A stretch of DNA of 62,061 nucleotides from a virus: the IMG/VR virus record IMGVR_UViG_3300021285_000001; one strand, given 5' to 3'. Numbering within the stretch: position 1 is the stretch's first letter; every line of letters starts with the position of its first letter. The notes below the pieces were generated by a model. That model did not search any database and was not told the origin of the DNA. It worked only from the letters and a program-made list of their open reading frames with translations. The position numbers were made by a program, and so were the translations under genes. Below are positions 1 to 62,061 of the stretch, piece by piece.

Positions 1-127
1 GCTTAACAGCAGGGAGTTGATTTCTTCCGTGTTCAGTTCTCTGATTTCGTCCATTTTTGCGTCCTCCTTTAGAATGGCAGGTCTTCGTCGGGCGGTACCT
101 CCGAGAAGTCGCTCGGCGTGGCGGCGG
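1..127. repeat. Terminal overlap, copy A
   Basis: Base-for-base identical to 61935-62061 when both ends are read. The length is typical of an assembler k-mer overlap. Confidence 0.95.
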
Positions 128-1011: not shown

Positions 1012-1838
1012 TTCCCGTCCTCCTTCCCGTGGGTGAGCGTCTGCGGGAATTGCTGGATCAGGTCGTCGCCCCAGACGGCTCTCATCTCCTTGCTGTCCTT
1101 AATCAGGACGGCGGCTCCGGTCGCGCTGGCCGCGCTGATGATGTTCTCGATCCACTCGCGCTTCGGCGTGGTCTTTCCGCGTCGGTTGCCGGTCTCTGCG
1201 CCGATGATTACCCATTTGATGGCGGGTGGCAGTTTTCCATCCTTTCCGAACGCGCCCATCAGCGGCTCGATTGATAAAAAGCAGTTGTGCGCTTCGGAAT
1301 AGAAGAACGGCGTCGCGTCGTCCGTGATGGTCGTTCCGTACCAGTAGTTCTCTTTGGCGGGGAGTTGTCCTTTCGCTCCCGTGTCAATGAGGCGCTGCGG
1401 GTTTTTCGTCAGGAATAGGTAATTGTGCCACGGTGCCGCTTCGCAGGCTTCAAAAACGCGCCGGATCCATTCGTCCGGTACCCACGCTCCGAAAAGGTCA
1501 GCCATGCTGCAGACGAAAATGTTCGCGGGTTTCTTTTTCTGCGCGGGCATCGGCAGGCGGTATTCGTGAAGCGTCGGGGAGAAGCCGGTCGGGAATTGCA
1601 GGGGTGTTTTGCCTTCTGCTTTGAACGGCTCCGGCAGGACATAGAGGATGTTGCCCTTCATGTCCTTCGGGTCGTCCGGCAGCCATTGTTTGATCTGCCC
1701 GCTGCTCTTGTTCAGCCGGACGTCCCCGCAAAATCGGCGGGCGAGCTTCCTTGCGTAGCAATACTCGCAGGTGTGGAGGCATCCGGTTATCGGATTCCAC
1801 GTGAAGTCGCACCAGTCGATTGGGCTTTTGTTCATCAT
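1008..1838 (-). CDS. Phage Gp37/Gp68-family (DUF5131) protein with CX3CX2C cysteine motif
   Basis: N-terminus IDWCDFTWNPITGCLHTCEYCYARK is the family hallmark. C-L-H-T-C-E-Y-C matches the radical-SAM CX3CX2C spacing. Confidence 0.75.
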   Translation of the reverse strand: MMNKSPIDWCDFTWNPITGCLHTCEYCYARKLARRFCGDVRLNKSSGQIKQWLPDDPKDMKGNILYVLPEPFKAEGKTPLQFPTGFSPTLHEYRLPMPAQKKKPANIFVCSMADLFGAWVPDEWIRRVFEACEAAPWHNYLFLTKNPQRLIDTGAKGQLPAKENYWYGTTITDDATPFFYSEAHNCFLSIEPLMGAFGKDGKLPPAIKWVIIGAETGNRRGKTTPKREWIENIISAASATGAAVLIKDSKEMRAVWGDDLIQQFPQTLTHGKEDGK

Positions 1839-1924
1839 GTCGTTTCCTCCTTCTTGGCGGGGTTATAATCAAATCCCGCCGTTTTTGGTTTTAAGGTGTG
1901 GCTTTCGGTGGCTTTTTCTGCCCC

Positions 1925-2605
1925 TTATAACCACGATTGGTTGTTTCGGTCGTCCATCCACTTCCGGTATGTCTTGTAGTCCATGTCGCGGATTCGCTTC
2001 ATCACCGAAAGGATCAGCCATTTCTGCTCCTCGTGGGTCATCTCTCTGAAGGTCGGTTTCCGCTTTGTCCGCAGTCCTACGTATTGCCCTTTGTGGAGGT
2101 AGACCAGAATTCCGATGTCTGGCGGCACCAGCGGCTCGATCTCCTTGTAGATTTCCTCCGGCACGGCGTAGAAGTTCATGTTCCCGATGAAGTTGTGACC
2201 GTGTTCGCTCTTGAAGTCGCTCTTGCTGACTTTTATCTCGAAACAGGTCAGCAGGATCATCTGCGTTCCCATTTTGGTGATGCCGTTCCATTTGCAGGAG
2301 GTCTGTTCGCAGTAGGTTGGCAGCGGCTTCATTGCGTCGTGTCCGAGTTCACAGGTCAGGCTTTGTCTGAAGCCTTCCTTCCGCCACCCCGCAGGGCGGC
2401 AGATGTGCCGGTATTCAATGTCGCCGAAGTATTCCGATACCCTGACCGCGTCAACGATGCCACTCTGGGTCGTTCCGCACTCGGCGACCACCTCCAGCGC
2501 GGTGTGCTGTCCTCGAAACTTGTTGATCCTGATGTCGCCGATCTGGGCGGGCGACCATGCGAGGAGTGCCTGCTCGATGTTCTTGGTCATCTCCGTTTTA
2601 GCCAT
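1925..2605 (-). CDS. PD-(D/E)XK nuclease-fold protein, MmcB-like
   Basis: GIVDAVRV ... LLTCFEIKVSKSDFKSE ... NFYAVP fits a D...E.K nuclease core as in MmcB-type proteins. Confidence 0.45.
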   Translation of the reverse strand: MAKTEMTKNIEQALLAWSPAQIGDIRINKFRGQHTALEVVAECGTTQSGIVDAVRVSEYFGDIEYRHICRPAGWRKEGFRQSLTCELGHDAMKPLPTYCEQTSCKWNGITKMGTQMILLTCFEIKVSKSDFKSEHGHNFIGNMNFYAVPEEIYKEIEPLVPPDIGILVYLHKGQYVGLRTKRKPTFREMTHEEQKWLILSVMKRIRDMDYKTYRKWMDDRNNQSWL

Positions 2606-2954
2606 TGGCGCTGGTCTCCCTTCCGAAGCTGACCATTCCGCTTTCGAGCATTCGCGCCATCATCAGCTCGTTCAGCTCTAAAAACAGCAGGTCGCACGGG
2701 TCTTCCGTCTTGACCGTCTCACCGTTGACCGTGAGCGTCCCCGTTATGCTCCAGCATATTCCGTGTCGCTTTGTGCCTATCTCGATGCCGATGTCTCCGG
2801 TGTAAAATTCGGAGAATTCGCGCAGGATTTTCTCCGCTTCCTGTTTTGCCTTCTCAACGAGGCGCGGGACGTCGCGGGTGGTGCAGGAGAAGTAGTCGGG
2901 GTGTTCCTTCGAGTATTCCTCGTGGATCCGCTGGTGATATGTTATCGCGCTCAT
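2598..2954 (-). CDS. Hypothetical protein
   Basis: The internal Met (MSAITYHQ) has an AAGGAGG RBS. The upstream 67 codons of the tracked ORF overlap the VR2 gene and look like out-of-frame read-through. Confidence 0.5.
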   Translation of the reverse strand: MSAITYHQRIHEEYSKEHPDYFSCTTRDVPRLVEKAKQEAEKILREFSEFYTGDIGIEIGTKRHGICWSITGTLTVNGETVKTEDPCDLLFLELNELMMARMLESGMVSFGRETSANG

Positions 2955-2970
2955 TGTGTCGCCTCCTTCT

Positions 2971-2990
2971 CCGCCCCATGAAGGGGCTGG
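2971..2990 (-). promoter_or_regulatory. GC-rich hairpin 28 nt downstream of VR2 (DGR target-recognition-type element)
   Basis: ccgcccc-atgaa-ggggc(t)gg forms a 7-bp stem with one bulge. It is homologous to the hairpin at 28650-28670 and has identical 28-nt spacing from the VR end. Confidence 0.55.
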
Positions 2991-3001
2991 ATTTCGCTGA
3001 T

Positions 3002-3634
3002 TCACGGATTGATCAGGAAGCCGAACGCGACCCCGTAGGCGGAGTTCGCGATGTAGTAGTTGGCGGTGCCGTAGCTGTAGACATTCCAGAAGAAGTACGT
3101 GTAGCCCGTGTGCGGGGAACGGAGCCAGTAAAACCATGTACCGTTGTCTCCGCATTCTTTCACGCGGCTTTTCTCGGTGCTGTAAAGATTGAAGTGGATG
3201 TCTTCGTAGTCGCCTGTTCTGGGGTCGTTGGTGAGGTCGTCTCCGAACATCTCCGTCACGGAAGGGAGCCAGATTTCGTCGGGCGTTCCGCCCTCCACGA
3301 TTTTGCCGTTGATTTTCTGCTTGATTGCTCTGGGAACGATGACCGCTCTCAATTCATCCGGCAAAAGCGGGAGGATGTCCTCGCGCAGGTGGCGGCGCAT
3401 CTCCGAGGGGTTATATCCGCCTTTGTTCGTCCATTCCTTGTTCATTGCCCATTGCTCCGGCAGGCAGTCGTAGCAAACAACAGCGGCTGTGGCTCCGTAG
3501 ACGCCGGTGGCGGCGATCTCGTATTTGATTTCCTGTCCGTTCTTCAGCGTGTCGGTGATAACGGCTCCGAGGATGGGGTTTTCTGCGATTTCCTTCCAGT
3601 TGGTCTCTTTGGTGGTTTTGACTGTGATATTCAT
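3002..3634 (-). CDS. DGR variable protein 2 (small C-type-lectin-like/DUF6273-like target)
   Basis: C-terminus WFYWLRSPHTGYTYFFWNVYSYGTANYYIANSAYGVAFGFLINP parallels the fibre C-terminus and the TR. The upstream part (EIWLPSVTEM, MRRHLREDILPLLPDEL) parallels the fibre's penultimate domain. Confidence 0.8.
   Translation of the reverse strand: MNITVKTTKETNWKEIAENPILGAVITDTLKNGQEIKYEIAATGVYGATAAVVCYDCLPEQWAMNKEWTNKGGYNPSEMRRHLREDILPLLPDELRAVIVPRAIKQKINGKIVEGGTPDEIWLPSVTEMFGDDLTNDPRTGDYEDIHFNLYSTEKSRVKECGDNGTWFYWLRSPHTGYTYFFWNVYSYGTANYYIANSAYGVAFGFLINP
3019..3127 (-). repeat. DGR variable region 2 (VR2)
   Basis: Aligns to TR 28041-28152. By hand alignment there are 13 mismatches, all at TR coding-strand adenines, plus loss of one AAC codon from the (AAC)5 run. 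Confidence 0.85.
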
Positions 3635-3649
3635 TTTCGTTTCTCCTTT

Positions 3650-4723
3650 TCAAAAAAATCTATAATGGCAGCCTTCCGCGAGCTTCTCGTAGTTCTCGTT
3701 CAGAAGGTTGAGGGTCTTGATGATTCCCGCTGGTGTCAGATCGTAGGTCTTGGCGATCCACTCCGCTGCGATTTCGTCCATCATGGTGTTGTCCTCGGCG
3801 GTCGCTCTGCCGTTGGTCAGCTTGGTCTTTACATTGACGCTCACTGGCTGCGCCATTCCGATGGCGTAGGCAAGCTGCACCTCTACGCTCTGGATTTCGT
3901 CGAAGCGTTGAATGAGGTCGCAGGCGATTTTTCGAGCCATGTATGCGCCGCTGCGGTCTACCTTGCTGGGGTCTTTGCCGCTGAAGGCTCCGCCTCCTAC
4001 GGGGCAGTAGCCGCCGTATTGGTCGCATACGATCTTCCTTCCGGTCAGTCCTGCGTCCGCTTCGGGTCCGCCTATCGTCCACGGTCCCGCAGGATTGGCT
4101 ATGACCTTCGCTTTGTTGGTGTCGATTCCGCAGTCCCAGAGTATTTCGTGGATTCCGTGAATGACCGACATCTGCGCTATGCTTTCTTTGTGGCAGGCGC
4201 TCACAAGGACGGCTTTCACGCTGGAAATGTCGGGCGGCGCGTCAAGGTCGACGGTTACCTGGCACTTCGCGTCGCCTTTGAAGAAGGTATCGGGGTTGGT
4301 CTCGACGTCCTTTTCAATGGCCGCGATTATGCGGTTGGCAAGGTCAAAACCGAAGGGCAGGAGGCTCTCGGTCTCTCTGCAGGCGTATCCGTACATCATG
4401 CCCTGATCGCCAGCGCCCTGCGCTTCTCCTTCGCCGACGCCTGCGGCAATTTCGGGCGATTGCTTCTGTATGTAGGTCATGATGTGGTCGGCTTTGTATC
4501 CGAGTTTCTTTGCCACTCCGTTTACGATCTCGGCGTAGTTTATCTCGGCTCTGGTGGTGATTTCTCCGGCAAGGATTACGGTGGTATCCTTTACCAGCGT
4601 TTCGCAAGCCACGCGGCTGTCCTTATCTTGGCGCAGGCAGGCGTCGAGAACGGCGTCGCTGATCTGGTCTGCGTATTTGTCCGGGTGGTACCGGCTCACT
4701 TGTTCTGTACTGAATAGTCGCAT
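3650..4723 (-). CDS. metK: S-adenosylmethionine synthetase
   Basis: GEITT, GAGDQGMMYGYA and GGGAFSGKDPSKVDRS motifs. Start moved to MRLFSTEQ, which has a GAAGGAGG RBS. Confidence 0.93.
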   Translation of the reverse strand: MRLFSTEQVSRYHPDKYADQISDAVLDACLRQDKDSRVACETLVKDTTVILAGEITTRAEINYAEIVNGVAKKLGYKADHIMTYIQKQSPEIAAGVGEGEAQGAGDQGMMYGYACRETESLLPFGFDLANRIIAAIEKDVETNPDTFFKGDAKCQVTVDLDAPPDISSVKAVLVSACHKESIAQMSVIHGIHEILWDCGIDTNKAKVIANPAGPWTIGGPEADAGLTGRKIVCDQYGGYCPVGGGAFSGKDPSKVDRSGAYMARKIACDLIQRFDEIQSVEVQLAYAIGMAQPVSVNVKTKLTNGRATAEDNTMMDEIAAEWIAKTYDLTPAGIIKTLNLLNENYEKLAEGCHYRFF

Positions 4724-4736
4724 TGTCCAGCCTCCT

Positions 4737-5069
4737 TCAATCTTCAAACACTCTTATGAGGTCGCCCTGTATCCCGTATCCGAAGCACAGGCTTCCGTGG
4801 TCGCAAATAAGGGCGAGTTCTGGGGTTGTGAGCTTTGGCTCGTTTTTGTAAATGCGGTATAATGCGTGGTTGTATCCTGCTTTTCTGCCTATCACAACAT
4901 CGTAGTCACTGAAGCTGCAGTCGTCTCCGTCTTTTAGGTCAATCTTCACGTCGTTTCGGTAGACCTTATATCTATCGGTCAGCTCTTTGTGGATTTCGGC
5001 GTTCATCTGAGCTTTTTCTCTCTCGTTCTCCGTGAACGCAAAAGACGGGTATATTTTCTTTTCAATCAT
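4737..5069 (-). CDS. Hypothetical protein
   Basis: 110-aa ORF with normal composition, tightly packed in the operon. Confidence 0.5.
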   Translation of the reverse strand: MIEKKIYPSFAFTENEREKAQMNAEIHKELTDRYKVYRNDVKIDLKDGDDCSFSDYDVVIGRKAGYNHALYRIYKNEPKLTTPELALICDHGSLCFGYGIQGDLIRVFED

Positions 5070-5081
5070 ATTTATCCCTCC

Positions 5082-5288
5082 TTACTTCGCCTTCTTGAAC
5101 ACGCGCTTCCAGTTCAGGCTGAAGTTGCGGTTGATGTGCGTCCAGCCGGATCGTCTCATCACGGCTTTGGCTATGCTTCTGGCGAGGCTGCGGGGGTAGA
5201 CGCCGGACGGCTCGCTCTGCGGGTTACGTCTCTTGCGGAAGGCTTTCAGTTCCGCCTGTGTTCTGGTCTTTCTCTTATTGCTTTTCAT
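5082..5288 (-). CDS. Hypothetical small basic protein
   Basis: 68-aa Lys/Arg-rich ORF in the operon context. Confidence 0.4.
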   Translation of the reverse strand: MKSNKRKTRTQAELKAFRKRRNPQSEPSGVYPRSLARSIAKAVMRRSGWTHINRNFSLNWKRVFKKAK

Positions 5289-5454
5289 GGGTAGCTCCTC
5301 CTTTGGTATTGATGGTTATTTTGATTTCCTTTGTGTCTTCGTCAAAGGAAACGTACACGGTACCGTCCGGTTTTCCTCCGGCTTCAATGATGAACGCTGT
5401 CGGTATCTGAAGGCGGCATTTGCCGTCCATTTTCTTCTTTTCGCAGAGGATCAT
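5275..5454 (-). CDS. Hypothetical small protein (possible AbrB/SpoVT-like fold)
   Basis: Internal start MILCEKKK with a GGAGG RBS. CRLQIPTAFIIEAGGKPDGTVYVSFDED loosely resembles a swapped-hairpin DNA-binding domain. Confidence 0.35.
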   Translation of the reverse strand: MILCEKKKMDGKCRLQIPTAFIIEAGGKPDGTVYVSFDEDTKEIKITINTKGGATHEKQ

Positions 5455-5723
5455 ATCCACACCTCCACGATGACGGGGTCGTCTTCTTCCATCGGCGGCA
5501 GTTTCGTCATGTTGGGCGGTATTTTCGCCCTGATATCCTCCAGCGTGTCCGCCAGCGCCACGAGGTGCGTCGGGTGGTTTGCGTCCCATACCCGCGCCAC
5601 GTAGCTGCTGGGGTAGTCTGTCGGGTGGTCGTAAATGCAAATCATCGGCAGTCTGGCTGTTTTCGTCAGCCGGATGTAGTCAAACGCTCCGCCGACGATT
5701 CTGTCGTCTCGTTCTGTTGCCAT
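5451..5723 (-). CDS. Hypothetical protein
   Basis: 90-aa ORF with an ATGA-type overlap with its neighbour. Confidence 0.5.
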   Translation of the reverse strand: MATERDDRIVGGAFDYIRLTKTARLPMICIYDHPTDYPSSYVARVWDANHPTHLVALADTLEDIRAKIPPNMTKLPPMEEDDPVIVEVWI

Positions 5724-5736
5724 AGTGTCTCTCCTT

Positions 5737-5889
5737 TCAAAGAATGGCTACGGTGACGATGATGGCGATTGCCAGCACCACGCCTGCCACGAAGTAGGTC
5801 ACGCGCTCTTTCTGGGTCTTTGCTCCGATTGCTCCGCAGAAGTAAACTGCCATAAAAAGCATGAGCGCGATCTGAAGTGCTATTTTCAT
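5737..5889 (-). CDS. Small membrane protein (50 aa, below the ORF-track cutoff)
   Basis: Hand translation MKIALQIALMLFMAVYFCGAIGAKTQKERVTYFVAGVVLAIAIIVTVAIL gives two hydrophobic helices. AAGGAGG RBS; ATGA overlap with the recU-like stop. Confidence 0.45.
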   Translation of the reverse strand: MKIALQIALMLFMAVYFCGAIGAKTQKERVTYFVAGVVLAIAIIVTVAIL

Positions 5890-6485
5890 TGCTCCGTTCC
5901 TCCTTTCATCCTGTCTATGATTTCGAGGTATGGAAGCCCTGACGCGCCTCCGGTTTTGATTTCCCAGTCCGGCAGGAAATCGTCAGCGCTGGCGCTTGCC
6001 ATGCCCGGTGTCATCCATGTGAAGCCGCGAGCGTTGACGATTATCTGTTCGCATTTTCGCGCCTTCGGGTTTGGTTTGTGTCTCCATGCGTCTCTGGCCG
6101 CTTTCCAAAATTCCCACGGTACCGCGAAGAAGCGCCGGAGATCGAAGCTCACGATTACGATGCCGACCGCTGCGGGGTCTGCTATGTAGGCATCCATGTA
6201 TTCGGCTTGGTGTGGCTCTACACGGTCAAATGCGATTCTGTCGCCTTCCTCGTGCTTCGCCTCGACCGCTACGGGGGTGCTGCGGTATCTGCCGAGGTAG
6301 TCCACGCAGCTCTTTTCTTCGACCTTGCAGTTGACGACATTGCCGGTGTGGTCCCGCAGGGGGATGAATTCGGTCGGGACTTTGTGAACGCAGGCGATCC
6401 GCTTGTTCTGGTATTGCGCGTGGACGAATTTCAGGAAGTCCTCAAACGGTCGCCCTCGGTTGGCTCTGCTGTAGTCCTTCATCAC
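5886..6485 (-). CDS. recU: RecU-type Holliday junction resolvase
   Basis: RGRPFEDFL, VHKVPTEF, VDYLGRY, VAVEAKHEE and EPHQAEYM follow the RecU catalytic layout. Confidence 0.75.
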   Translation of the reverse strand: MMKDYSRANRGRPFEDFLKFVHAQYQNKRIACVHKVPTEFIPLRDHTGNVVNCKVEEKSCVDYLGRYRSTPVAVEAKHEEGDRIAFDRVEPHQAEYMDAYIADPAAVGIVIVSFDLRRFFAVPWEFWKAARDAWRHKPNPKARKCEQIIVNARGFTWMTPGMASASADDFLPDWEIKTGGASGLPYLEIIDRMKGGTEQ

Positions 6486-6799
6486 GCACCTCCGAGGACG
6501 CCGTCGGCGATTGCGTTGTCGATCTCTTTATGCAGGCGGTATGTGGTGCCGCCGCCGATTCCGTTTCCGCTGCCGACTTTGCCTTCGAGGTAGGCGATGA
6601 AGCGTTCCACGACCTCTCGGTCTGTTTTGCGCTTGGCGTTTTCTTCCTTCGCCAGACGCATCCCTTCGTCTATGCCGGTGCTATGCTGGCGATCCATCGT
6701 CTCGCATAGCTGCTGGTCGGTCATTTTCCGCAAACTGACGGCGCGGTCGTGAATGGCGCGTTCTTCGTCAGTCATGCGGCAGTTCTTCTTTTTTGCCAT
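6482..6799 (-). CDS. Hypothetical protein
   Basis: 105-aa ORF in the operon. Confidence 0.45.
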   Translation of the reverse strand: MAKKKNCRMTDEERAIHDRAVSLRKMTDQQLCETMDRQHSTGIDEGMRLAKEENAKRKTDREVVERFIAYLEGKVGSGNGIGGGTTYRLHKEIDNAIADGVLGGA

Positions 6800-7145
6800 T
6801 TGGATTTCCTCCTTGTTCTATTTGCTGTAGGTATTCTTTTATCGCCTCGGCGACGCTCTGTGCTACCGTTGTGGTTACCGCGTTTCCGAATTGTTTGTAT
6901 GCCTGGGTGTCGCTTACGACTTGTTTCCAGCCTTCGTCAATCGGGAACGCCTGAAGTCGTCCATACTCTCTTGGTGTGAGTTTTCGCACTCTGTATCGCT
7001 TCGGGTCAAAAATCTTTATATGGTGGGTGCCTCCGGCGACCGCTGTAAGGGTTGGCGATATGCCATCGGTGCTATGCACTCTTTTCCCGTGGTCGTGTCC
7101 GCTTTGGTCAAGCCTTCCGATTACTTCGATTTCTTTGTCAGTCAT
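6768..7145 (-). CDS. C5-cytosine DNA methyltransferase, C-terminal fragment/subunit (motifs IX-X)
   Basis: DGISPTLTAVAGG, RKLTPREYGRLQAFP and YKQFGNAV. It has its own AAGGAGG RBS 8 nt before the ATG, which overlaps the upstream stop (ATGA). Confidence 0.8.
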   Translation of the reverse strand: MTDKEIEVIGRLDQSGHDHGKRVHSTDGISPTLTAVAGGTHHIKIFDPKRYRVRKLTPREYGRLQAFPIDEGWKQVVSDTQAYKQFGNAVTTTVAQSVAEAIKEYLQQIEQGGNPNGKKEELPHD

Positions 7146-8413
7146 CTGCTGTCCCTCCTTTTATTTCGAGGACAGCGGTCATTCGCTGATTTCCGAAACC
7201 TTTGTAGTCCCTCGCCATAAGACATCCGGCGACGTCTGTGATTGCGTCTAATTCTTGCGCCTGCTTTGAGACGGCGATGCCTATTCGGACACTCTCTCCA
7301 GAATGTACATGGGCTGGGCTGTCTTGAGGCTTCGAGGATGTGCTGATAGTTGTGTTTCTTTGACAGCGACCCCCCCCCCGCGACTCGGAGCGTTCTTCCG
7401 ATTTCGTTCGGGTTGAGGAGACCTGTTTCGTCGCAGATTGCTTTTTCGACTTCCTCTGCTGGCTCGATGATCAGGTTATCCTTCAGCACCGTCGTGAGCG
7501 TGTTGGAGATTCCGTCAGTTCTTGGCTCCGGGGATTTCACGTCAGACCATTTCGCGTCCGTCTCTCCGGCTTCGTATTGCTTTCGGATCTCTTTGCCGTA
7601 TTCGTTTCTGGCGTTTCGTAGAGCGGTAGGCTCTGTTGGCGCGGTGTGAAGTTTGCCTTCTTTCAGCAATTTTTCAAGTGCCTTTTGGATGATGCCTTGC
7701 GCCTTTTCGTCTGAAATGTAGAATTTTTCATCCACATTTTCATCGAGGAAATCGGCGAGCCTCGGCACCTGGTGCCCTTCTTGTTTGCTTGGCATTTTTA
7801 CGGTGTCCGGCAGGTCTTGCCGTGTCGCTATGATGTAGTAGCGCTCGCGGTTTTGGGCTACGTCGAAGTATTTTGAATTATATAATTCGATGTGTCCGAT
7901 GTACCCGCGTCGGTGAAGTTCTTCCATAAGCGTCGGGATGAATTTCTTCAGCCCTTTTACGTTTTCTGCTACCAGGATCGCTGGCATCTGTTCTGGGGCG
8001 TTTTCTTTTGTCTCCTCAAGAAGTCGCATCATTTCAAAAAACATAGCGCTCCTGGTCTTTGCTTTGAAGCTCTGGCTTCCGCACTTCGGGCATTGGGTTG
8101 CGCCCTCTCCGCCGTCGTGTTCCCATTCGGTTTGGCACTCGTTGCAGATAAAAGCGAAGCCTGCCCGCTTTCCAGCGTTGGATAAGTCTTGGCAAGGGAA
8201 ACCGAAAGCCCAGACCGTTGCGGCTGGCACGTCCTTCCAGCACATCTCGCGGATGTCTGCTTCTTTGACGTGGTCTCCGAGGTTTTCTCGGTAGCTCTGA
8301 ACGGCGTATTTGTCAAAGTCCCAGGCTCCGACCACTCGGTATCCTGCGTTTCTGAAGCCGACCGCCATTCCGCCGCATCCGCAGAAGAAGTCGTTCATTG
8401 TCAGTTCGTGCAT
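7142..8413 (-). CDS. C5-cytosine DNA methyltransferase, N-terminal fragment/subunit (motifs I-VIII plus TRD-like repeats); frame disturbed after a G10 tract
   Basis: FFCGCGG (I), GFPCQDLS (IV), LVAENVKGL (VI) and QNRERYYI (VIII). The last 75 codons after RVAGGG are Arg-rich junk, whereas the frame one base over encodes CLMARDYKGFGNQRMTAVLE. Start set to MHELTMNDFF, which has an AAGGAGG RBS. Confidence 0.8.
   Translation of the reverse strand: MHELTMNDFFCGCGGMAVGFRNAGYRVVGAWDFDKYAVQSYRENLGDHVKEADIREMCWKDVPAATVWAFGFPCQDLSNAGKRAGFAFICNECQTEWEHDGGEGATQCPKCGSQSFKAKTRSAMFFEMMRLLEETKENAPEQMPAILVAENVKGLKKFIPTLMEELHRRGYIGHIELYNSKYFDVAQNRERYYIIATRQDLPDTVKMPSKQEGHQVPRLADFLDENVDEKFYISDEKAQGIIQKALEKLLKEGKLHTAPTEPTALRNARNEYGKEIRKQYEAGETDAKWSDVKSPEPRTDGISNTLTTVLKDNLIIEPAEEVEKAICDETGLLNPNEIGRTLRVAGGGSLSKKHNYQHILEASRQPSPCTFWRECPNRHRRLKAGARIRRNHRRRRMSYGEGLQRFRKSANDRCPRNKRRDSR
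7370..7379 (-). repeat. G10 homopolymer (C10 on plus strand) inside the C5-MTase gene
   Basis: Read directly; coordinates confirmed by codon arithmetic. Context on the minus strand is TCGC-G10-T. Confidence 0.9.
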
Positions 8414-8424
8414 CTTATTCCTCC

Positions 8425-9486
8425 TTATTTCGTTCTCCAGCTCTCCCAGTACATCTCCATTCCGGCGCACATCTCGCGGAGGCGGTCGAGGGTCTTTTCG
8501 GCGTTCCTCGTGTCTCCGAGTTTGCCGCCGTAGGTCGGCGTCATCCTGCGGATCAGTTCGTCTCCGGTGTAGTTGGTCGTTACGATGGTCGGCATATAAG
8601 CCTCGTACCGTGCGTTGATGATGGAGTAGATGTGGGTGTTTCCCCATTCGGTTGGTTGCTCGCTTCCGATGTCGTCAATGATGAGGAGGGGGATTTCCTC
8701 GTATAATCTCATGACTTCCGCTTCGGTCGCGGTGTCGTCCTTCTCGAAGGTGCTTTTTATCTTCGCCAGCAGGTCGATCATGGTCATACAAATGACCGCC
8801 GTTCCGCCCTGCATGAGTTGGTTGGCGATGGCGCAGGCGAGGTGTGTTTTGCCGGTGCCGTAGCTGCCGGTGATGAACAGCCCGTTCCGCTCCTTCTTCG
8901 GCGGTACCACGTTCCCGCGTTCGTCTTTGGTGGGGAGCATGATCGGGAAGCTGTCGGCGTATCTCTTGCACTTCTCGTATGCCTTCCGGTTGATGTCTGT
9001 TACCTCGAAACGGTCAAACGTCCGGTTTGCGAAGCGTCCACGGATCCCGCTCTCTCTGACGAGCCGTGCCACGCGCTTCCGCATCCATTCCATTTCCTTT
9101 TGGCGTTGTTCCTCGGCTTCGGCTTCCTTTTTCAGTCGTTCCTGTTCAGCCCAGTATTCCTGTGCCTTATCGCAGTCGCACCGTTCCGGCTCCTCAAACC
9201 ATAGAAAAACCTCATGCTTACCCTCGAAGTTCTTCAGTCCGTAGTGGTATAGCGTCTTTCCGCAGAATTGGCAGGTTTTCGGCTCCGGTGGATCCGTTCG
9301 CATCTTCCAGCCCTCTGCTATTGCTGTGTCGCTTCGGATTTGGAACCCGTTCGGCTCTTTGTCTTGGTCTTCATCCTCATTCGGATTTGAAGCCTGCGGG
9401 GGTGCCATTGCCGCCTTTTCTTCTCTGGTAAGCGGCACCGACATCGCTGCTGCTATCAGCCCGCCTATTGGCGTCATGTCTGCCAT
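8425..9486 (-). CDS. DnaC/IstB-like AAA+ helicase loader
   Basis: Walker A GSYGTGKTHLACAIANQL and Walker B LLIIDDIGSE, with an N-terminal CxxC-containing region. The exact start is uncertain because it overlaps the upstream ORF by about 110 nt. Confidence 0.85.
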   Translation of the reverse strand: MADMTPIGGLIAAAMSVPLTREEKAAMAPPQASNPNEDEDQDKEPNGFQIRSDTAIAEGWKMRTDPPEPKTCQFCGKTLYHYGLKNFEGKHEVFLWFEEPERCDCDKAQEYWAEQERLKKEAEAEEQRQKEMEWMRKRVARLVRESGIRGRFANRTFDRFEVTDINRKAYEKCKRYADSFPIMLPTKDERGNVVPPKKERNGLFITGSYGTGKTHLACAIANQLMQGGTAVICMTMIDLLAKIKSTFEKDDTATEAEVMRLYEEIPLLIIDDIGSEQPTEWGNTHIYSIINARYEAYMPTIVTTNYTGDELIRRMTPTYGGKLGDTRNAEKTLDRLREMCAGMEMYWESWRTK

Positions 9487-10201
9487 CGTCTCTCACCTCC
9501 TTGATTTCGTTGTCCCAGTAGCCGCCGTTCAGCCACGTCGCGGGGTATGGTATGTAGCGCCCATTTTCGCGCTGCCAGTCCTCGCTTCGCTTCTGAAGCT
9601 CGACGGCTTTCATGATCTTTTCAAAGAGCGCGGTGTTCGGTTTGATTTTCTTCCACGCTTTTACGGCGTTCTGTTTTGCCTTCTTGTTCGGGTAGGCTTC
9701 CCAGAAGGCGTCAAAGCGTTTTTCGAGCAGCGTCTCCGTTGACGGTGGCTGGTCGTCCGATTCCGCGTCGGCGTCCGCTGGTTTCGGGTCGCCGTTTTCT
9801 TCGTCTTTGTATGGTGCTGGCACAGTGCTTTCACTGTGCTTGTTTGGTGCTTCTTGTTCTCGGCATCCGGGCGGCGGGGGTATCTCGCTGTCTTTTTCCT
9901 TCATGTTGGGGTTTTGGTGCTTCGAGAAGTTGTCGATCTGGATGTATGCCGTTCCGTCCACCTCGTATCTGGTGATGAAGCCGGAGTCAGCGAGTTGCTG
10001 AAGCATTCCGTTCGCTTCCTCGGCGGTTACGTCGTCGTATCCCAGCAACGTCTTCTTAATTCGGAGAGGTCGGTCTTCAAGCCGCCCCTCTCGGTCTGCG
10101 ATGCACCATAGTCCGATGAACAGGAGCCGCGTCAGCGGGTCAAGCCCGCCCAGTATATCGTTGTCAAAGAACGCCGGTTTGATGTTTCTTGTTCTCGCCA
10201 C
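9377..10201 (-). CDS. Replication initiator / replisome organiser-like protein
   Basis: N-terminus NIKPAFFDNDILGGLDPLTRLLFIGLWCIADREGRLEDRP and C-terminal YPATWLNGGYWDNE are typical of phage replication organiser proteins. Located upstream of the loader. Confidence 0.6.
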   Translation of the reverse strand: MARTRNIKPAFFDNDILGGLDPLTRLLFIGLWCIADREGRLEDRPLRIKKTLLGYDDVTAEEANGMLQQLADSGFITRYEVDGTAYIQIDNFSKHQNPNMKEKDSEIPPPPGCREQEAPNKHSESTVPAPYKDEENGDPKPADADAESDDQPPSTETLLEKRFDAFWEAYPNKKAKQNAVKAWKKIKPNTALFEKIMKAVELQKRSEDWQRENGRYIPYPATWLNGGYWDNEIKEVRDDGRHDANRRADSSSDVGAAYQRRKGGNGTPAGFKSE

Positions 10202-26284: not shown

Positions 26285-26692
26285 TTACTCGCCCGCATAG
26301 ACGACCTCGCTCATTTCCAGCAGGCATTCTTCGAGAAAGTCGTTCCGGTTTTCCAGTTCCTTGACCTTCTCCGTCAGTTCCGCCCTTGTAAGCACTTCCT
26401 CCTCGTCGGTGTCGTCGGGGATTTCAGGGTCTTCATCTTCCGGGTCTTCGCCTTTGATTTGGTCATACTCCTCTTTTGTGATGAATTCGGCGTATGGCTC
26501 TTTCTCCCCATGAGGCATATTCCCGTTGATGAGGTAGATGGTCTCGTTGTCCTCTCCGATGATGCCCTGTGCTTCTTCCTCGGTGCATCGAACGAGCATT
26601 CCGTTGCTCTGCCACCTGACGTAAACAAGGACTTCGATTTTCTCCGCCCCTGTGAGCCTGTCTTCTGCGTCAAACGTTTTAATGTAATGCAT
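26285..26692 (-). CDS. Hypothetical acidic protein
   Basis: Start MHYIKTF with an AAGGAGG RBS. Overlaps the RT stop by 14 nt. Confidence 0.5.
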   Translation of the reverse strand: MHYIKTFDAEDRLTGAEKIEVLVYVRWQSNGMLVRCTEEEAQGIIGEDNETIYLINGNMPHGEKEPYAEFITKEEYDQIKGEDPEDEDPEIPDDTDEEEVLTRAELTEKVKELENRNDFLEECLLEMSEVVYAGE

Positions 26693-27821
26693 ACGATTCT
26701 TCCTCCTTGAAAACAAAAAGTTTATTGAATAGGTCTCCTGCGTTCTGGATCGTGTGCCATGCGTTGAATTTCTGCGCGTAGCCTCGCCAGCTCTGCCAGC
26801 CGTTCCAGATGTCCCTGAAGGTTATCGTTCCTTCTTCGAGGCGCTTTTTCAGGCGCTTCATCTTCCGTCTCATCCGGGTGATGCTTTTCTTGCAGATTTT
26901 TCGGATAACCTTTCCGGTCTTGGTCAGGAATATCCGGGCTTTCAGCCATATAAAACCGTGCGAAAGTTTCACGAGCTGGGTCTTCTTCTGGTTGAGCGTG
27001 ATTTTCAGCATTTGGCAGATTTCCGCGATTCCCTCGCGGCACTTCTGCAGGTATTCCTTGCTTGGGTGGATGAGGTAGCCGTCGTCCATGTATCTGCCGT
27101 ATCCTCTTATCCGCAGGACTTCCTTCACGTAATGGTCGAGCCGGTTTGCCGAAGCCAGCGCCAGCACTTGGCTGATCTGGCTTCCCAGTCCGAGACCGAT
27201 GTCTCCGAAAGCGTCCACGAAATGCCCGGCGAGCTGCTTTATCTTTTCGTCCGTGAAGGTCTTCTCGAATATCCCCTTGACGATCTCGTGGGAGACGTTG
27301 TCGAAAAACTTTGAAAAGTCAAAAAGCAGGATGTAGCCTTCCTGTCCGTGCTTCCGGTAGTGTTCGTGCAGGTGCTGGGTCATGCGGCGCATACAGAAGT
27401 CGTAGCCTTTGTGCTTCATGCTCGCCCCGTTGTCGTAGACGAAGGTCGGGGTAAGCGCCGGAACGAGCGCGTTGTCGCATAGGCACCGTTGCACCACTCG
27501 CTCTCCGATGACGGTGCTGCGGATGTGTCGGTGTTTGCCTCGCTCGTAGAGGTCGAATTCGTAAAAGCCGGGGCTTCTGTATGTCCCGTTCTGCAGGCGC
27601 TGTCTGGTCTGAAAAATCGAAAGCGGGGCGGTGGATATGTACCGCTGGACGCTCGCCTTCCATGAAACGCCTCGCCTGCAGCACCGGTACGACCGGTAGA
27701 GGTTATCGTATGAAAATACGGCGTTGAAATTATCGGCTGTCTCAAGCCTTCGGGCTTTCTTTTCAGCCCTTGCCTTGATTCTCCTCTGGTATCGTTGTTC
27801 TTTTCTCTGTTCGCTTGTCAT
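26679..27821 (-). CDS. DGR-type reverse transcriptase
   Basis: ILLFDFSKFFDNVSH, DGR-characteristic LGLGSQISQVLA and GYGRYMDDGYLIH (YMDD). GGAGG RBS. The TR lies 219 nt upstream. Confidence 0.92.
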   Translation of the reverse strand: MTSEQRKEQRYQRRIKARAEKKARRLETADNFNAVFSYDNLYRSYRCCRRGVSWKASVQRYISTAPLSIFQTRQRLQNGTYRSPGFYEFDLYERGKHRHIRSTVIGERVVQRCLCDNALVPALTPTFVYDNGASMKHKGYDFCMRRMTQHLHEHYRKHGQEGYILLFDFSKFFDNVSHEIVKGIFEKTFTDEKIKQLAGHFVDAFGDIGLGLGSQISQVLALASANRLDHYVKEVLRIRGYGRYMDDGYLIHPSKEYLQKCREGIAEICQMLKITLNQKKTQLVKLSHGFIWLKARIFLTKTGKVIRKICKKSITRMRRKMKRLKKRLEEGTITFRDIWNGWQSWRGYAQKFNAWHTIQNAGDLFNKLFVFKEEESYALH

Positions 27822-28040
27822 ATAAAATCCTCCGTCACCCCGTACCCCTGTCGGAAGGTTGCGTATAGGGGCATAGCGTCACCGGCTATGAAACGCGGCA
27901 TCACCTTCAAGCCGCGCCATGCAAGCAGCGTCCAGCCGGACGCATCAGGGCGAATATTTACCTTTCGGATGGTTATGCTCTCCTTCTCTCCTGTCAAGTC
28001 TGATTTCGCCGTTTCCGGTTACTGTGTCTGCTTTGAGAGG

Positions 28041-28174
28041 AGCCGAACGCGACCCCGTAGGCGTTGTTCGCGTTGTTGTTGTTGTTGGCGTTGCCGTTGC
28101 TGTTGACATTCCAGAAGTTGTTCGTGTTGCCCGTGTTCGGGGAACGGAGCCACCAGTTCGTCGCTGCGCCGGTC
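28041..28174 (-). repeat. DGR template repeat (TR)
   Basis: 134-nt non-coding copy of VR1, rich in AAC codons including (AAC)5. The tracked ORF 27994-28197 is only this repeat read in frame. Confidence 0.9.
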
Positions 28175-28649: not shown

Positions 28650-28670
28650 TCCGCCCCACGAGGGGGCGGA
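28650..28670 (-). promoter_or_regulatory. GC-rich hairpin 28 nt downstream of VR1 (DGR target-recognition-type element)
   Basis: tccgcccc-acgag-ggggcgga: 8-bp stem, 5-nt loop, between the fibre stop and the avd-like start. Confidence 0.6.
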
Positions 28671-28687
28671 TTGCCCTTGATGTCTGA

Positions 28688-31600
28688 TTAAATGCAGAAG
28701 CCGAACGCGACCCCGTAGGCGTTGTTCGCGCCGTAGTTGCTGATGGCATTGCCGTAGCTGTCGACATACCAGAAGATGTACGTGAAGCCCGTGCCCGGGG
28801 AACGGAGCCACCAGTTCGTCGCCGCGCCGGACCCGAAGTTCAGCTTCTTGATCCTGCTCGTGTCGTTCGTGAAAACCGTAAACGTCGCATCGGATTCCAA
28901 AGAGTAGGGGGATGTGGTCGTTTGCGAGCCGATCTCCTTGACGCTCGGTATCCAGATTTTGTCCTCGGCGGGCGGATCCACGAGACCCGTCGCCTGGTAG
29001 CCGGTGTTCGAGTGAACGTAAACGGTCAGGATGAGCTGCTGCCATGTCGTCGGTAGGGCGTTGAAGATGCGGGCGTTCAGCCATGTTCTGAACGGCATCG
29101 CTTTCCATCCGCCTGCGTTGCTGTTCGCCGAGTTCATGACGTGCGTTTCCTCCAGCAGGTCTTTAAGCAGGAACGCGCAGTTGACGTATCTTTGGTTATC
29201 TGCACGAGTGAAGTTTCGGAACGCATACTGTGAGCTGCCGACCGCCTGCATCTTGAATGTCTGGCGCGGCCACGATACGAGTTCGCGGCAGGCGTCGTCT
29301 CCAAGGTCACCGTCCCACAGTTTTGCCCAGTAGACCGTTCCCTTGCCGTAATTGTCCACGTAGCCGTCGTTGGCGACCTGTGCGCCGAATACGAGCGGTG
29401 CTGTGTGTTCTGGCGCGGTGGTCTGTGTCAGGGCGCTGTAGGAGATTGCGTTGCCGTTCTTGTTGGATGCGTAGACATAGAGCGTGGCGTCTCCTTTTTT
29501 CTTCCTGATGACGGTGATCTGGCGCACTCCGTTGCTCGAAACCTGCAGGGCGGACGACGATCCGTATCTGACGCTTCCTCCTGTCGCGTATCTCAACAAG
29601 AAGCCGTTACTGTGGTAGCAAGCGGCAAGGCAGCCGCCTGCGGCGCTGCTGGTGTCGAATGCGAAATCTACCACGAGGGTGAAGGATTTGTCGCTGTCAA
29701 ACAGAAGGATGTCGTTGCTGTCGATCTGCGGTTTCAGGTAGTTCGTTCCGTCGAACGTCTGGGGGCTGTCAAGGCTCACGAGTTCATGTGCTGTTACGTT
29801 GCTGAAATCGAAATCACGCCCAGCCACAATGTCGATGGTGTCGCCGGAGGATACGACGTTGTTGTTTGCTCCTGTCGGCGACAGGATTTCGGTCGCCACC
29901 AGTGCATGGAGTTCGGTTGCGTTCATCTGCGCCAGCGTTTTGCCGGACGGAACGGTCGCGGATTCGTATTGTGCATAAACATCGAGGTCTCCGGTGATGT
30001 AGCCGGTCGATTTGTCCCAGCCTTTGAACAGGTAATAGGTGGCGTAGTCTCCGTCGCTTGGGTTCACCGGTGTGTTACCGGAATAAGCCACGCTGTCGCC
30101 ATATTCTGCCGTCTGTGTTTCGAGGAGCGTCGTTCCGTTGTAGAAGCGGACGGTGTATGTCCTCGTGGACGCTGCGTAGTGGGCGTAGATGGTCGTATTG
30201 GCGGTAATCGAGATCGCACTCAAGTCTGGGATGACCGACCCGCCGTCCGTCCAGCTCCAGCCGTCAAATGTGAATGTCTCCGCTGCTGTGCTGGGTTTCG
30301 TTGGCGTCGGGATCGGGTCAACATAGAGGTAGCGCGGGTCTGTCGGTGCCGAGCCTTGACCTACCCTCTGGGTGTTCAGCGTCGCTCCGTTGTAGTTCTT
30401 GAACGTGACGGTGTATGTCGGCACTTCGGTGTCGTAGGTGATCGTCAAGTTCGGGAACGCCGACCGTAATGCCGCGAGGTCGTCTGCGGTTATCATGGTT
30501 ACGTGAGCGGTGCCGGTCAATACGAAGTTGTCCGTGTTGTCGCCGCTTCCACTGATACCCGCGAGCGTTGCGAGGTGCTTCAGCAGGTTGGCGCTGTTCA
30601 TCGTCCAGTTCACGCCGATGAGACGTCCTCTGGTGAGGTTTGTGGCGTTGGTTACGAGCGTCAGCGTATCAATCAACGGGCAGTTCTCGATCCATACGCT
30701 CTGCAGGTTGGCGGCGCTCATGGTGAACGTCTCCAGTTCTGTGAGGTCTCTTGCGATGAGCTGTCGGAGCGCGTTCAGTTCTGCTACGCGCAGGGGCGCT
30801 CTCTGGGCGAATGTCACGCCGGTGATTGCCGACCCTGTGGTGTAGATTTCCTCCAGCGCCTTCAATGCCGATAGGTCGAGACCTTGCGCGAGGTTTGGCG
30901 TTCCGCGTAGGTCGATTTTCTCCATCAGGATGTTGTTTCCGAAGGAGACGCCGCCGTTCTCGGAGTTCAGCGAGGTGTTCTGGTACCCTTCTTCGCTTGA
31001 GCCGAGGATTGCCTGCTTCAGCTTCTTGGCTGACGACAGGTCGGCGAATTTCGTATAAAGGGCTGCGAGTGAGCCGATTGCCGCGATGTTGCTCGCGCTG
31101 TAGATGTAGGTTTCGAGATCGTTCAGGGACGCGCCTGCGGGCATTTCGATGTTGTATGTTTGCCCTCTGGTCGCTCTCACTCTGACGGTGCCTGCGTTGC
31201 CGTATTTGACCGTGATGTAAGTCGAGGCGTATGGAACGATCCCATTGATGTCTCCGGAAGGCTCCACGCCGCTCCACGTTTCCGGTGCGTTTGCGCGAAG
31301 GCTGATTCGGTCAGCGGTCGAAACGGACCCGCCGTATTTTGCGCTCATGTACGGCTCCTGGTATGTTTCAAACTGGATGAGCTGGTCTTCCTTCGTGCCG
31401 AGCATCGTCCTGATGTAGCGCTGCTCCTGTGCGAAAATGTACGGGGAGAAGTATTTTCCCCACATATCCTCGATGATGAGGGCTTCCGGTCTGTTGTCGC
31501 GGTATGCCTTCCATTTGGCGAGGATACGCTCTGCGCTGAACGCTCCGGCTGCTTCCAGTTGTTTGAACATCGTCTCCAGCTCGCTGCGGAAAAGGTCGCG

Positions 31601-59361: not shown

Positions 59362-59506
59362 GTCGTGTCCTCCTTTCCTGATTTTTGGGTATAAGAAAAG
59401 GCAGACCGTTTCCAGCCTGCCCTTTAATGGGTTATTCGGTTAAGTAGTCGCCGGATCGCTTTCGCCATTCGGCGCAGCGCCCGCTTCGCGGCCACTATGA
59501 AGGCTA

Positions 59507-60511
59507 TTAGTACCCCCCCCCCGCGATTGCGTTGGCTTTTTCGTTCTCCTGCTTGAGTTCGATGTATTGGTGGGTCTTTCCGTTCCTCTCGCAGGTTACG
59601 CCGACGTTTCCGGTGAGTTTGACGTAGCTGTTGATGATTACGTCGCAGTATCGGGGGTCGAGTTCTATGGTGTAGCACCGTCTTCCGGTGAGTTCTGCTC
59701 CGCGCAGCGTGGATCCGCTGCCTCCGAAGAAGTCAATCACGAGGTCGCCTGTTTCGGTGCTGTTGTCGATTGCTCTGATCGCAAGTTCCACGGGCTTCTG
59801 GGTCGGGTGTTCAGCGTTGGTCTCTCTGCTGACCTCCCACGTGTCGGTGCTTCGGTCGGTCTCGGTGGAGTAAAGGCTGACGCTGCGTCCTTCCGATAGC
59901 CTGATGTAGCGGATTTTCTTTCCCTTCGGCGGTTTCTCCGCTATGTAGACCTTGTTGCCAGCGCCGTCCGTGAGGACTACGCCGCCAGAGAGGACGGTTG
60001 CTGTTCCGTCTTCGGCTCGGAGGACTACCTTCCACGTGGTGCGCTGGGCGCGGTCTCCGTAGAAGTGTGCGCTCTGTCCGGCTTTCTCTGCGTAGAAGCA
60101 CGGCTCGTGCGCCCATTGGTAGTCGGCGTGTCCGAGTACCGGCGCGTTCTTTACCCAGATGATGTATTGCTTCTCGACGATGCCTGCCGCTGTCATTGCG
60201 TCCTCAAAGTCGCGGCGCGTGCTGCTGGCGTGCCAGATGTAAAAGGCGGCGTCGTCTTTGGTGTACTTGGCGTAGTTCTTGAACGCCGGAATGAGCAGGG
60301 TCTTCATCAAGTCGTCGCCGGTGAGGTCGTCGTTCTTGATTTTGTCAAACTTCCCGCTCTGGCTCTCGTAGGATACGCCGTAGGGCGGGTCTGTGTTGAC
60401 GAGGTCTGCCTTTTCGCCGTTCATCAGCCGCTCGACGGTCTTTTCGTCGGTCGCGCTTCCGCATATCAAACGGTGGACGCCGAGTTGCCAGAGGTCTCCG
60501 GCTTTGCTCAT
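59507..60511 (-). CDS. N6-adenine/N4-cytosine DNA methyltransferase (beta-class, DPPY)
   Basis: LVNTDPPYGVSYE (motif IV) precedes DFFGGSGSTLRGA (motif I). No RBS before its ATG. It is in frame with the ParB ORF across one TAG. Confidence 0.9.
   Translation of the reverse strand: MSKAGDLWQLGVHRLICGSATDEKTVERLMNGEKADLVNTDPPYGVSYESQSGKFDKIKNDDLTGDDLMKTLLIPAFKNYAKYTKDDAAFYIWHASSTRRDFEDAMTAAGIVEKQYIIWVKNAPVLGHADYQWAHEPCFYAEKAGQSAHFYGDRAQRTTWKVVLRAEDGTATVLSGGVVLTDGAGNKVYIAEKPPKGKKIRYIRLSEGRSVSLYSTETDRSTDTWEVSRETNAEHPTQKPVELAIRAIDNSTETGDLVIDFFGGSGSTLRGAELTGRRCYTIELDPRYCDVIINSYVKLTGNVGVTCERNGKTHQYIELKQENEKANAIAGGGY
59513..59522 (-). repeat. G10 homopolymer four codons before the methyltransferase stop
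   Basis: Encodes ...IAGGGY*. Minus-strand context is TCGC-G10-T, the same 15-mer as at 7366-7380. Confidence 0.9.
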
Positions 60512-60592
60512 TGGGATGTTGTCGGGGGTCTCGACCGTTGCGTCTGCATGGTCGTCTTCCGTATCGTCCGCTCCTGAAAGCGCGGCGATGAT

Positions 60593-60595
60593 CTA
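60593..60595 (-). other. In-frame amber (TAG) codon separating the ParB domain from the methyltransferase
   Basis: 81 nt (27 sense codons, no other stop) connect this TAG to the MTase ATG in the same frame. Confidence 0.9.
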
Positions 60596-61078
60596 CGCGA
60601 TGTCTTCCTCGGTGTAGCCGGTGAGTTCTATCGGTGCCTCGCCGGTGTCCATGTCGTTGATTAGGTCAATCAGTCGCCCTGTGTCGAGCGTTGCCAGTTC
60701 CGCGAGGCGGTTGTCGGCGATCAAGTCCGCCCATTCCTCTGCGTCGTTGGCATACTCTTGGTAATCTACGGGGACTTCCTTCCAATGCCGGAACGCGGCG
60801 GCTGCGAGCCGTCCGTGTCCCTTTACAATGAAGCCGCTCCGCTTGCTTATGGTTATGGGCTGCCTCCAGCCCGTTGCCTCGATAATCTTTGCCAGCATTT
60901 CCACCTGTTCGGGGCTGTGCTGGTTGGGATTCTTCGGGTTTGGGATCGCTTTTTCTATTCCCACGATTTCGTCGTGAGAGCAGAAGACCGGCACACCGTC
61001 AGCGGTGGTCGCTTTCGGTGTGGCTGTGGTCTCGTAGTCGATCTCGGTGAATGTGTTTTTCGGCTTTTTCTTTGCCAT
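60593..61078 (-). CDS. ParB-like nuclease/N-terminal domain protein
   Basis: IPNPKNPNQHSPEQVEMLAKIIEATGWRQPITIS...VKGHGRLAAA. Start at MAKKK, 8 nt after GGAGG. Confidence 0.8.
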   Translation of the reverse strand: MAKKKPKNTFTEIDYETTATPKATTADGVPVFCSHDEIVGIEKAIPNPKNPNQHSPEQVEMLAKIIEATGWRQPITISKRSGFIVKGHGRLAAAAFRHWKEVPVDYQEYANDAEEWADLIADNRLAELATLDTGRLIDLINDMDTGEAPIELTGYTEEDIA

Positions 61079-61165
61079 TTCCCATTCCTCCATGCTATCA
61101 TTTTATCACTTTTCTATTGCCGATTAAATGCCCACATTTTGCACCGTGCTTGTATGGTGCTTTCA

Positions 61166-61777: not shown

Positions 61778-61988
61778 GCTTTCCATCTCCTCTCTGAAGC
61801 CACGCGAGGCAGTCTTCGAGCGACGTGAAGTCTTCCGTCCATGCGTCGCCGGTGCTGTTGTCCACGCCGACGTAGATGTCGCCGTCTTTGTGGTAAAAGC
61901 GCCCGATGGGGGAATAGTTACCGTCGCCGTTCCCGCTTAACAGCAGGGAGTTGATTTCTTCCGTGTTCAGTTCTCTGATTTCGTCCAT
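61767..61988 (-). CDS. Hypothetical protein
   Basis: 73-aa ORF following ssb across the circular junction. Its first 54 nt are duplicated at window positions 1-54. Confidence 0.45.
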   Translation of the reverse strand: MDEIRELNTEEINSLLLSGNGDGNYSPIGRFYHKDGDIYVGVDNSTGDAWTEDFTSLEDCLAWLQRGDGKHEQ

Positions 61989-62061
61989 TTTTGCGTCCTC
62001 CTTTAGAATGGCAGGTCTTCGTCGGGCGGTACCTCCGAGAAGTCGCTCGGCGTGGCGGCGG
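61935..62061. repeat. Terminal overlap, copy B
   Basis: Identical to 1-127. It duplicates the SSB 3' end and the start of the 61767-61988 ORF. Confidence 0.95.

Follow-up and report, generated by a model that had tools for sequence, protein, structure and literature searches.

What does a phage gene encode once a single TAG has cut it in two, and how did the TAG come to be there? The question is raised by the IMG/VR virus record IMGVR_UViG_3300021285_000001, a stretch of 62,061 nucleotides analysed here as a whole (the window), in which an open reading frame (ORF) for a ParB-like protein ends at a TAG and is followed, in the same frame, by an ORF for a DNA methyltransferase (MTase). Very probably the locus is a phage gene for a ParB-N6-adenine DNA MTase fusion that is present as a natural amber (nonsense) allele, with the MTase largely off and the interruption not programmed. 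The window, from a phage of gut Clostridia, is a complete circular genome of about 61.9 kb, as indicated by a 127-bp terminal overlap (1-127 and 61935-62061), and loci from other samples cross the circular junction without a break. All the genes of the window are on the minus strand.

The fusion gene and its amber codon

The original prediction, made from the letters of the window, had the ParB ORF ending ...LTGYTEEDIA-TAG at 60593-60595, followed by 27 stop-free codons in the same frame up to an MTase ATG at 60511. These coordinates proved exact, the open codons being confirmed at 60592-60512, and the gene is laid out as follows.

61086..61091, minus strand: Shine-Dalgarno (SD) sequence of the ParB start, GGAGGA, with an anti-SD duplex energy of -9.3 kcal/mol
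61078-61076, minus strand: ParB start ATG, opening the 161-codon ORF
60596..61078, minus strand: N-terminal, ParB/Srx-fold portion of the fusion, with 161 sense codons up to ...ELTGYTEEDIA
60593..60595, minus strand: in-frame amber TAG, codon 162, derived from GAG (Glu) by G-to-T at 60595
60512..60592, minus strand: 27 in-frame sense codons (IIAALSGADDTEDDHADATVETPDNIP), the end of the last ParB-side helix and an acidic disordered interdomain linker
59507..60511, minus strand: complete N6_N4 (beta-class, DPPY) DNA MTase domain, 334 codons and TAA
60511-60509 and 59509-59507, minus strand: MTase ATG and MTase TAA stop

The MTase ATG had been described as lacking an SD sequence, and its anti-SD duplex energy of +0.4 kcal/mol is indeed the weakest among 52 starts scored, most of which lie between -9 and -16 kcal/mol. 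A shared frame (1 in 3) together with 27 open codons (about 0.27) would arise by chance in about 9% of cases; the anatomy is therefore weak evidence alone, and homology carries the argument.

The two parts match a single family, phrog_498, collinearly, the ParB part at profile positions 8-160 (E=1.1e-35) and the MTase part at positions 190-448. The ParB part scored 19.3 bits against Pfam ParB_N, under the curated cut-off of 26.3, and matched PHROG ParB-like families with E=1.9e-29. The MTase part reached 93.7 bits against PF01555 (N6_N4_Mtase; cut-off 26.7) and covered profile positions 2-219 of 221. The catalytic TDPPYG and the S-adenosylmethionine (SAM)-binding (FxGxG) FFGGSGST are present in the MTase translation and invariant in the homologue alignment.

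When the conceptual fusion was used as query against a collection of 5.8 billion proteins, 7,531 homologues were obtained at E <= 1e-10. Each of the best 120 is a single protein, 456-595 aa long, with a match to 73-99% of the fused query, the match being at least 91% in all but one, and identity to uninterrupted family members reaches 97%. Both window ORFs share one 90%-identity cluster with 25 other members; the fusion is uninterrupted in all 12 fused members read from that cluster, in 84 of 85 other loci, the remaining one, from Selenomonas, having its frame shifted at a poly-G tract, and in 13 of 14 genome-derived prophage copies. Even the spacer peptide is retained, with 26 of its 27 residues matching the fused sister protein P0123. 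Among deposited phage genomes, a DNA search gave distant matches only, to MTases of Faecalibacterium and Roseburia phages, which are 66-70% identical and span no more than 22% of the query.

Homologues that are always two genes, with a ribosome-binding site before the MTase, would have spoken for a naturally split architecture. They were not seen; this arrangement was rejected, as no split relatives turned up, the MTase start has the worst SD of the 52 and its Met is not conserved. The column of that Met holds M in 82 of the 120 homologues and F, I, Y, A, V, L or T in the other 38, for which reason a conserved internal start that gives free MTase in all relatives was likewise rejected. ParB-MTase fusions had been called a common phage architecture, in agreement with the 120 fused homologues and with a published survey (PMC12704722). 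On the window itself the two domains do not stand in one uninterrupted ORF, the TAG at 60595-60593 lying between them. The collinear phrog_498 matches and the uninterrupted relatives with a sense codon at this place support the view, already put forward in the original prediction, that the ORF pair represents a ParB-MTase fusion gene cut by a single amber codon.

The AlphaFold2 model of an intact relative, P0001, has a ParB/Srx core at residues 20-125, with a predicted local distance difference test score (pLDDT) mostly above 90. Codon 162 falls after this core, within the last short helix (157-167), and residues 168-195 are of low pLDDT and without predicted secondary structure, forming the acidic linker before the MTase.

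The residue that the homologues carry at the TAG position was among the checks proposed at the outset. All 12 further members read from the same 90% cluster have Glu there (...EEDIAEIIAAL...). In the DNA, the codon is GAG in L001, L002 and L008 and GAA in L006 and L007; TAG stands in L003-L005. In the 120 proteins and 71 further loci only sense codons occupy this column, and the residue varies widely (A, E, G, D, K, S, R, N, Q) between conserved hydrophobic positions, D-[LI]-x-X-I-I-A-A-[LMI]. The closest fused relative aligned, the sister genome L006/L007, has 19 differences from the window across the 1,572-nt gene and is 98-99% identical in the surrounding blast blocks. Since the closest relatives have Glu (GAG or GAA) at this codon, TAG is derived by a single G-to-T change, and polarising with two outgroups places the change, at 60595, on the window branch. 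Comparison of these sequences shows that the TAG arose from GAG (Glu162) by one substitution in one clone.

The extent of that clone can be seen from other assemblies. The exact 161-aa ParB fragment is encoded on seven contigs, and the three of them that were fetched, L003 (SRR7110433), L004 (ERZ27247011) and L005 (SRR7110579), all have the TAG and match the window at 100% identity over 10-20 kb. The accessions of the samples gave no matches in the literature. The base is thus present in four assemblies, the window included, made by different pipelines from at least three runs or analyses. As every TAG contig is identical, they represent one clone, and a long persistence of the TAG allele could not be shown.

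Products of the allele and the decoding of TAG

Under the standard code, translation would end at codon 162 and yield a ParB/Srx-fold fragment of 161 aa. The MTase part, which from its sequence still looks like a complete catalytic domain from Met190, would be made at trace level only, through near-cognate readthrough or else when ribosomes reinitiate, after termination, 81 nt downstream; its output would be low because the internal Met190 has no ribosome-binding site and is not a conserved start. The allele would amount to 'ParB on, MTase largely off'. It would be a recent or tolerated variant, with function lost or strongly reduced, of a gene that is presumably not essential to the phage.

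On the window branch, one nonsense and two missense changes (Q177H and D499N, both downstream of the TAG) are found alongside 2-7 synonymous changes, as against 0 non-synonymous and 8-9 synonymous changes on the sister branch. The substitutions are few, and a hypergeometric estimate of the asymmetry gives p of about 0.03-0.12, a weak hint that constraint may have been relaxed on the window branch. They were too few for a dN/dS test of decay after the TAG, and the asymmetry alone is weak.

Several observations weigh against a largely inactive MTase. The MTase ORF downstream of the TAG is intact and without clear decay, its only missense change, D499N, occurring also in relatives; an intact ORF is compatible with a very recent mutation and, just as well, with a domain that is still in use. 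The complete circular genome of the clone was recovered repeatedly, so the allele is not obviously harmful, and the codon position accepts almost any residue, so any readthrough product would work. Finally, a clone-specific change at 60548 creates an ATG with a mini-ORF that ends as ATGA on the MTase start and could partly restore MTase expression.

60508..60549, minus strand: out-of-frame 13-codon mini-ORF, with its ATG at 60549-60547 and its TGA (60508-60510) overlapping the MTase ATG as ATGA

The change in question is a G-to-T that also produces Q177H, and the ancestral-like sequence has no start codon in that frame. Whether the mini-ORF is a translational-coupling bridge or a coincidence is a matter of speculation. 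Taken as a bridge, it suggests an adaptive split, in which the amber would yield a two-protein system with ParB made from its normal start and the MTase usefully re-expressed by termination-reinitiation, possibly through the 13-codon ORF. Such a split would be in line with the ATGA overlaps (gap -4) that are common between genes of this genome, with the intact MTase domain, and with a second lineage (L114) in which the fusion is also broken in the linker, there via a poly-G tract. We nevertheless consider it unlikely. The SD of the mini-ORF is weak, at -3.5 kcal/mol versus about -11 kcal/mol for a typical gene. Six of the 243 possible spacer substitutions, about 2.5%, would create such an ATG, which with two clone-specific spacer changes makes a coincidence of 5-8%. 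No relative uses the split design, and the observation is post hoc.

Still harder to uphold is the proposal that the TAG is decoded by a suppressor tRNA of the host or of a co-infecting phage, by pyrrolysine or by context-dependent readthrough, so that full-length ParB-MTase is conditional and ParB alone is made otherwise. The open ORF downstream and the tolerance of the TAG position for any residue would suit this proposal, as would the recovery of the clone across several samples, and TAG-recoded phages are known from gut metagenomes. Against this, no tRNA or tmRNA gene was found by ARAGORN in the whole 62-kb genome, and an Rfam scan of the window gave no tRNA match, only an RT-2 RNA. In a chain of 80 ORFs drawn up mechanically, about 7 terminate in TAG, and several of these directly precede genes with an SD of their own. 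The TAG at 50663, which had been predicted to be a genuine stop, is conserved as such in L001, L003 and L006 and overlaps the SD-led start of the next gene. Under code 11 the ORFs form a dense chain whose starts are SD-led; the longest ORFs and the ORF-length spectrum are nearly unchanged when TAG is read as sense, and only one interrupted gene with an in-frame TAG was recognised in the window. At the TAG column, no stop was seen in about 200 homologues, among them the 120 proteins and 71 loci outside the clone, which leaves nothing conserved to be 'programmed'. Related prophages sit in metagenome-assembled genomes (MAGs) of ordinary gut Clostridia, Oscillospiraceae and Ruminococcus.

Genome-wide or partial reassignment of TAG was rejected on the missing tRNA, the conserved genuine stop elsewhere and the unaffected ORF lengths, as the original prediction had anticipated for the genome as a whole; pyrrolysine or programmed readthrough was rejected because no homologue retains a stop at the TAG position. 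Without a tRNA, with TAG a conserved stop elsewhere and with ordinary Clostridia as hosts of the relatives, an altered genetic code or programmed readthrough at the ParB-MTase TAG has no support. Of the explanations offered at first, a recent nonsense mutation has stood, being derived, one step from GAG and confined to one clone; regulation by suppression or readthrough and host-specific decoding found no positive support.

The least credible explanation, a sequencing or assembly error or a minority variant raised to consensus, has in its favour that the TAG differs from the relatives by a single base, and was rejected since four otherwise identical contigs from at least three runs agree on the base, G-to-T is no homopolymer-type error and the TAG allele is linked to two further clone-specific missense changes.

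Poly-G tracts and other changes in the MTase genes

The natural amber allele remains the preferred reading of the TAG; the poly-G tracts in the MTase genes are more interesting than the TAG itself. Homopolymers of G or C of at least 8 bases occur only twice in the genome. Both are G10 on the coding strand and both lie inside DNA MTase genes, which make up about 5% of the genome (p of about 0.003 for two of two, a rough estimate). Tract lengths were read from consensus assemblies throughout.

59513..59522, minus strand: G10 homopolymer in the ParB-MTase gene, three codons before the MTase stop, of hypervariable length
59424..59512, minus strand: alternative-frame C-terminal tail VLIAFIVAAKRALRRMAKAIRRLLNRITH, within the ORF 59424-59678, read at G8 or G11 and out of frame at the G10 of the window
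59396..59425, minus strand: 13-bp hairpin followed by a U-run, with a minimum free energy of -19.8 kcal/mol, z = -3.8 and 0 of 200 shuffles folding as well
7370-7379, minus strand: G10 homopolymer in a C5-MTase gene, inside the PF00145 ORF 7142-8413

The tract of the ParB-MTase gene was found at the same site in 21 fetched viral-contig loci from other genomes, ranging from G7 to G15, in C-terminal segments 66-94% identical to that of the window; more distant relatives are without it. Three pairs of loci with identical flanks (100% over 400 nt upstream and 150 nt downstream) differ in the tract, L010/L012 with G9/G10, L011/L042 with G9/G12 and L022/L024 with G9/G8. The same is seen among the proteins, P0124 and P0134 being identical up to the tract and different beyond it, and P0133/P0127 and P0002/P0003 being near-identical pairs that differ only past it.

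The length of this tract selects one of three C-termini: a 1-residue end, an acidic tail of about 24 aa, or a basic amphipathic helix of 25-29 aa. The window, with G10, has the 1-residue end (...GGGY-stop). Tails of the VLIAFIVAAKRALRRMAKAIRRLLNRITH type are present in P0001, P0003, P0005, P0128, P0134 and L102-L104, and they remain basic and amphipathic in L018 and L021, which are diverged relatives; in the model of P0001 the tail is predicted to form a helix at 521-549. The reading frame of the basic tail ends exactly at the terminator-like hairpin. This hairpin emerged from folding, a scan for consensus promoters and terminators having found nothing on the coding strand. Its appearance is that of an intrinsic terminator, which would close the transcription unit ahead of the terminase small-subunit gene, the gene downstream of it matching phrog_6299.

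A change in the ParB-MTase tract exchanges the last 1-29 residues only; in the C5-MTase it alters the C-terminal 30-80 residues or so of the first ORF. The latter gene consists of a 423-aa ORF (7142-8413) followed by a second PF00145 ORF of 125 aa (6768-7145), the two being joined by an ATGA overlap. Its relatives (L086-L095) have a poly-G of G6-G12 at the homologous site, followed in most of them by another tract, of G7-G9, some 200-350 nt downstream; conserved peptides occur in more than one frame.

Three of ten C5-MTase relatives (L091, L092 and L094) are further disrupted. L091 differs from L090 by a CAG-to-TAG amber at codon 242 of the C5-MTase, L092 has an 11-bp deletion and L094 a frameshift. 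In the ParB-MTase family, the Selenomonas MAG contig CAMURM010000001.1 (L114) has a G9 tract at 1202-1210 in the linker, which breaks the fusion and where G8 or G11 would restore the frame. Either the MAG has a homopolymer error here, or ParB and the MTase have been uncoupled in a second way.

The recurrent disruptions and the variable tracts suggest that selection on phage methylation may fluctuate, and the amber allele would fit such a pattern. One could go further and regard the amber as one selected 'uncoupled ParB / low-MTase' state, with its ATGA-coupled mini-ORF, in a phage lineage whose MTase genes act as contingency loci. We hold this to be possible and rather improbable. It is proposed because both G10 tracts lie in MTase genes, at sites kept across diverged relatives and with lengths that vary between identical flanks, because the alternative C-termini selected by the tract keep their character across relatives, and because in other lineages the ParB-MTase linker is broken by a poly-G tract, or the C5-MTase gene is present as an amber or frameshift allele.

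In the early region (about 1-9900) the anti-restriction content is mosaic, the place of the clone's C5-MTase being taken in L001 and L006 by an N6_N4 MTase of 321 aa. The phage group encodes a MetK-like SAM synthetase, and some relatives add Lar restriction-alleviation proteins or an Acb2/Tad1-like protein. Elsewhere on the minus strand of the genome there is what looks like a diversity-generating retroelement (26679-28165, 28650-28790 and 2985-3127). Its candidate parts are a reverse transcriptase ORF (26679-27821) that matches phrog_1423, the Rfam RT-2 RNA (27815-28036, 147 bits) and a template repeat at about 28030-28165, with variable repeats at the C-terminus of a 2029-aa tail protein and at the C-terminus of a 210-aa DUF6273 protein. 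Most mismatches between the template and the two variable repeats are at A positions of the template.

Known systems and the meaning of the allele

The classical amber (am) mutants of phages such as T4 or lambda carry a sense-to-TAG substitution in an otherwise intact ORF, and their full-length product requires a suppressor. The allele described here resembles them in being a single such substitution, and differs in being a natural allele of a metagenomic clone, in a gene that is probably dispensable and with no suppressor host indicated. Stop-codon-recoded gut phages (TAG as Gln, code 15) have many in-frame TAGs and usually a suppressor tRNA of their own, and their gene calls collapse under code 11. 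The window shares with them an in-frame TAG inside a gene of a gut phage, but has only one, along with no tRNA and normal ORFs under code 11. Before an in-frame amber in a metagenomic phage genome is taken as recoding, one should ask for several codons of the kind, for a suppressor tRNA or for a conserved stop; a lone amber is not enough.

A survey reports that ParB folds fused to an N6N4-MTase occur frequently in phages, with an enrichment in prophage regions, and may have a role in anti-defence (PMC12704722). The window gene has the domain order and the family of the phage ParB-CTPase-fold / N6_N4 MTase fusions (PF02195 and PF01555; phrog_498). It departs from them in that the ORF is cut by TAG at codon 162, so that with standard decoding efficient translation is to be expected of the ParB part only, and it is best annotated as a disrupted ParB-MTase fusion rather than as two genes.

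In the literature on poly-G phase variation in phage MTases, only host systems were found (Campylobacter, Neisseria, Moraxella and Helicobacter). The tracts described here are like those of the MTases made phase-variable by simple sequence repeats (phasevarions, Type I/III systems of restriction-modification (R-M)), as presented in bioRxiv 10.1101/2020.06.18.137471, in that homopolymer tracts in MTase ORFs differ in length between otherwise identical sequences and shift the frame. They differ in being located in orphan MTases of gut Clostridia phages and not in host mod/hsd genes; moreover, the ParB-MTase tract, from its place at the extreme 3' end, would swap the C-terminal tail without switching the enzyme off.

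The TAG clone and its GAG/GAA sisters make up a natural experiment, being 96-99% identical in aligned blocks across the gene and the adjoining packaging and head genes; they differ elsewhere, including in MTase gene content. A contrast of the methylomes of the clone and the sisters would point to the target motif of a widespread uncharacterised family of phage enzymes, and might show the role of the ParB domain alone. If confirmed at the read level, the poly-G tracts would take repeat-driven phase variation of methylation beyond the R-M systems of bacteria and into the orphan MTases of phages. Should the MTase genes indeed be contingency loci, phages of gut Clostridia would stochastically diversify or switch off their own methylation, in a phage-borne analogue of the phasevarion, the likely driver being that the phages alternate between hosts restricting unmethylated DNA and others restricting the methylated form.

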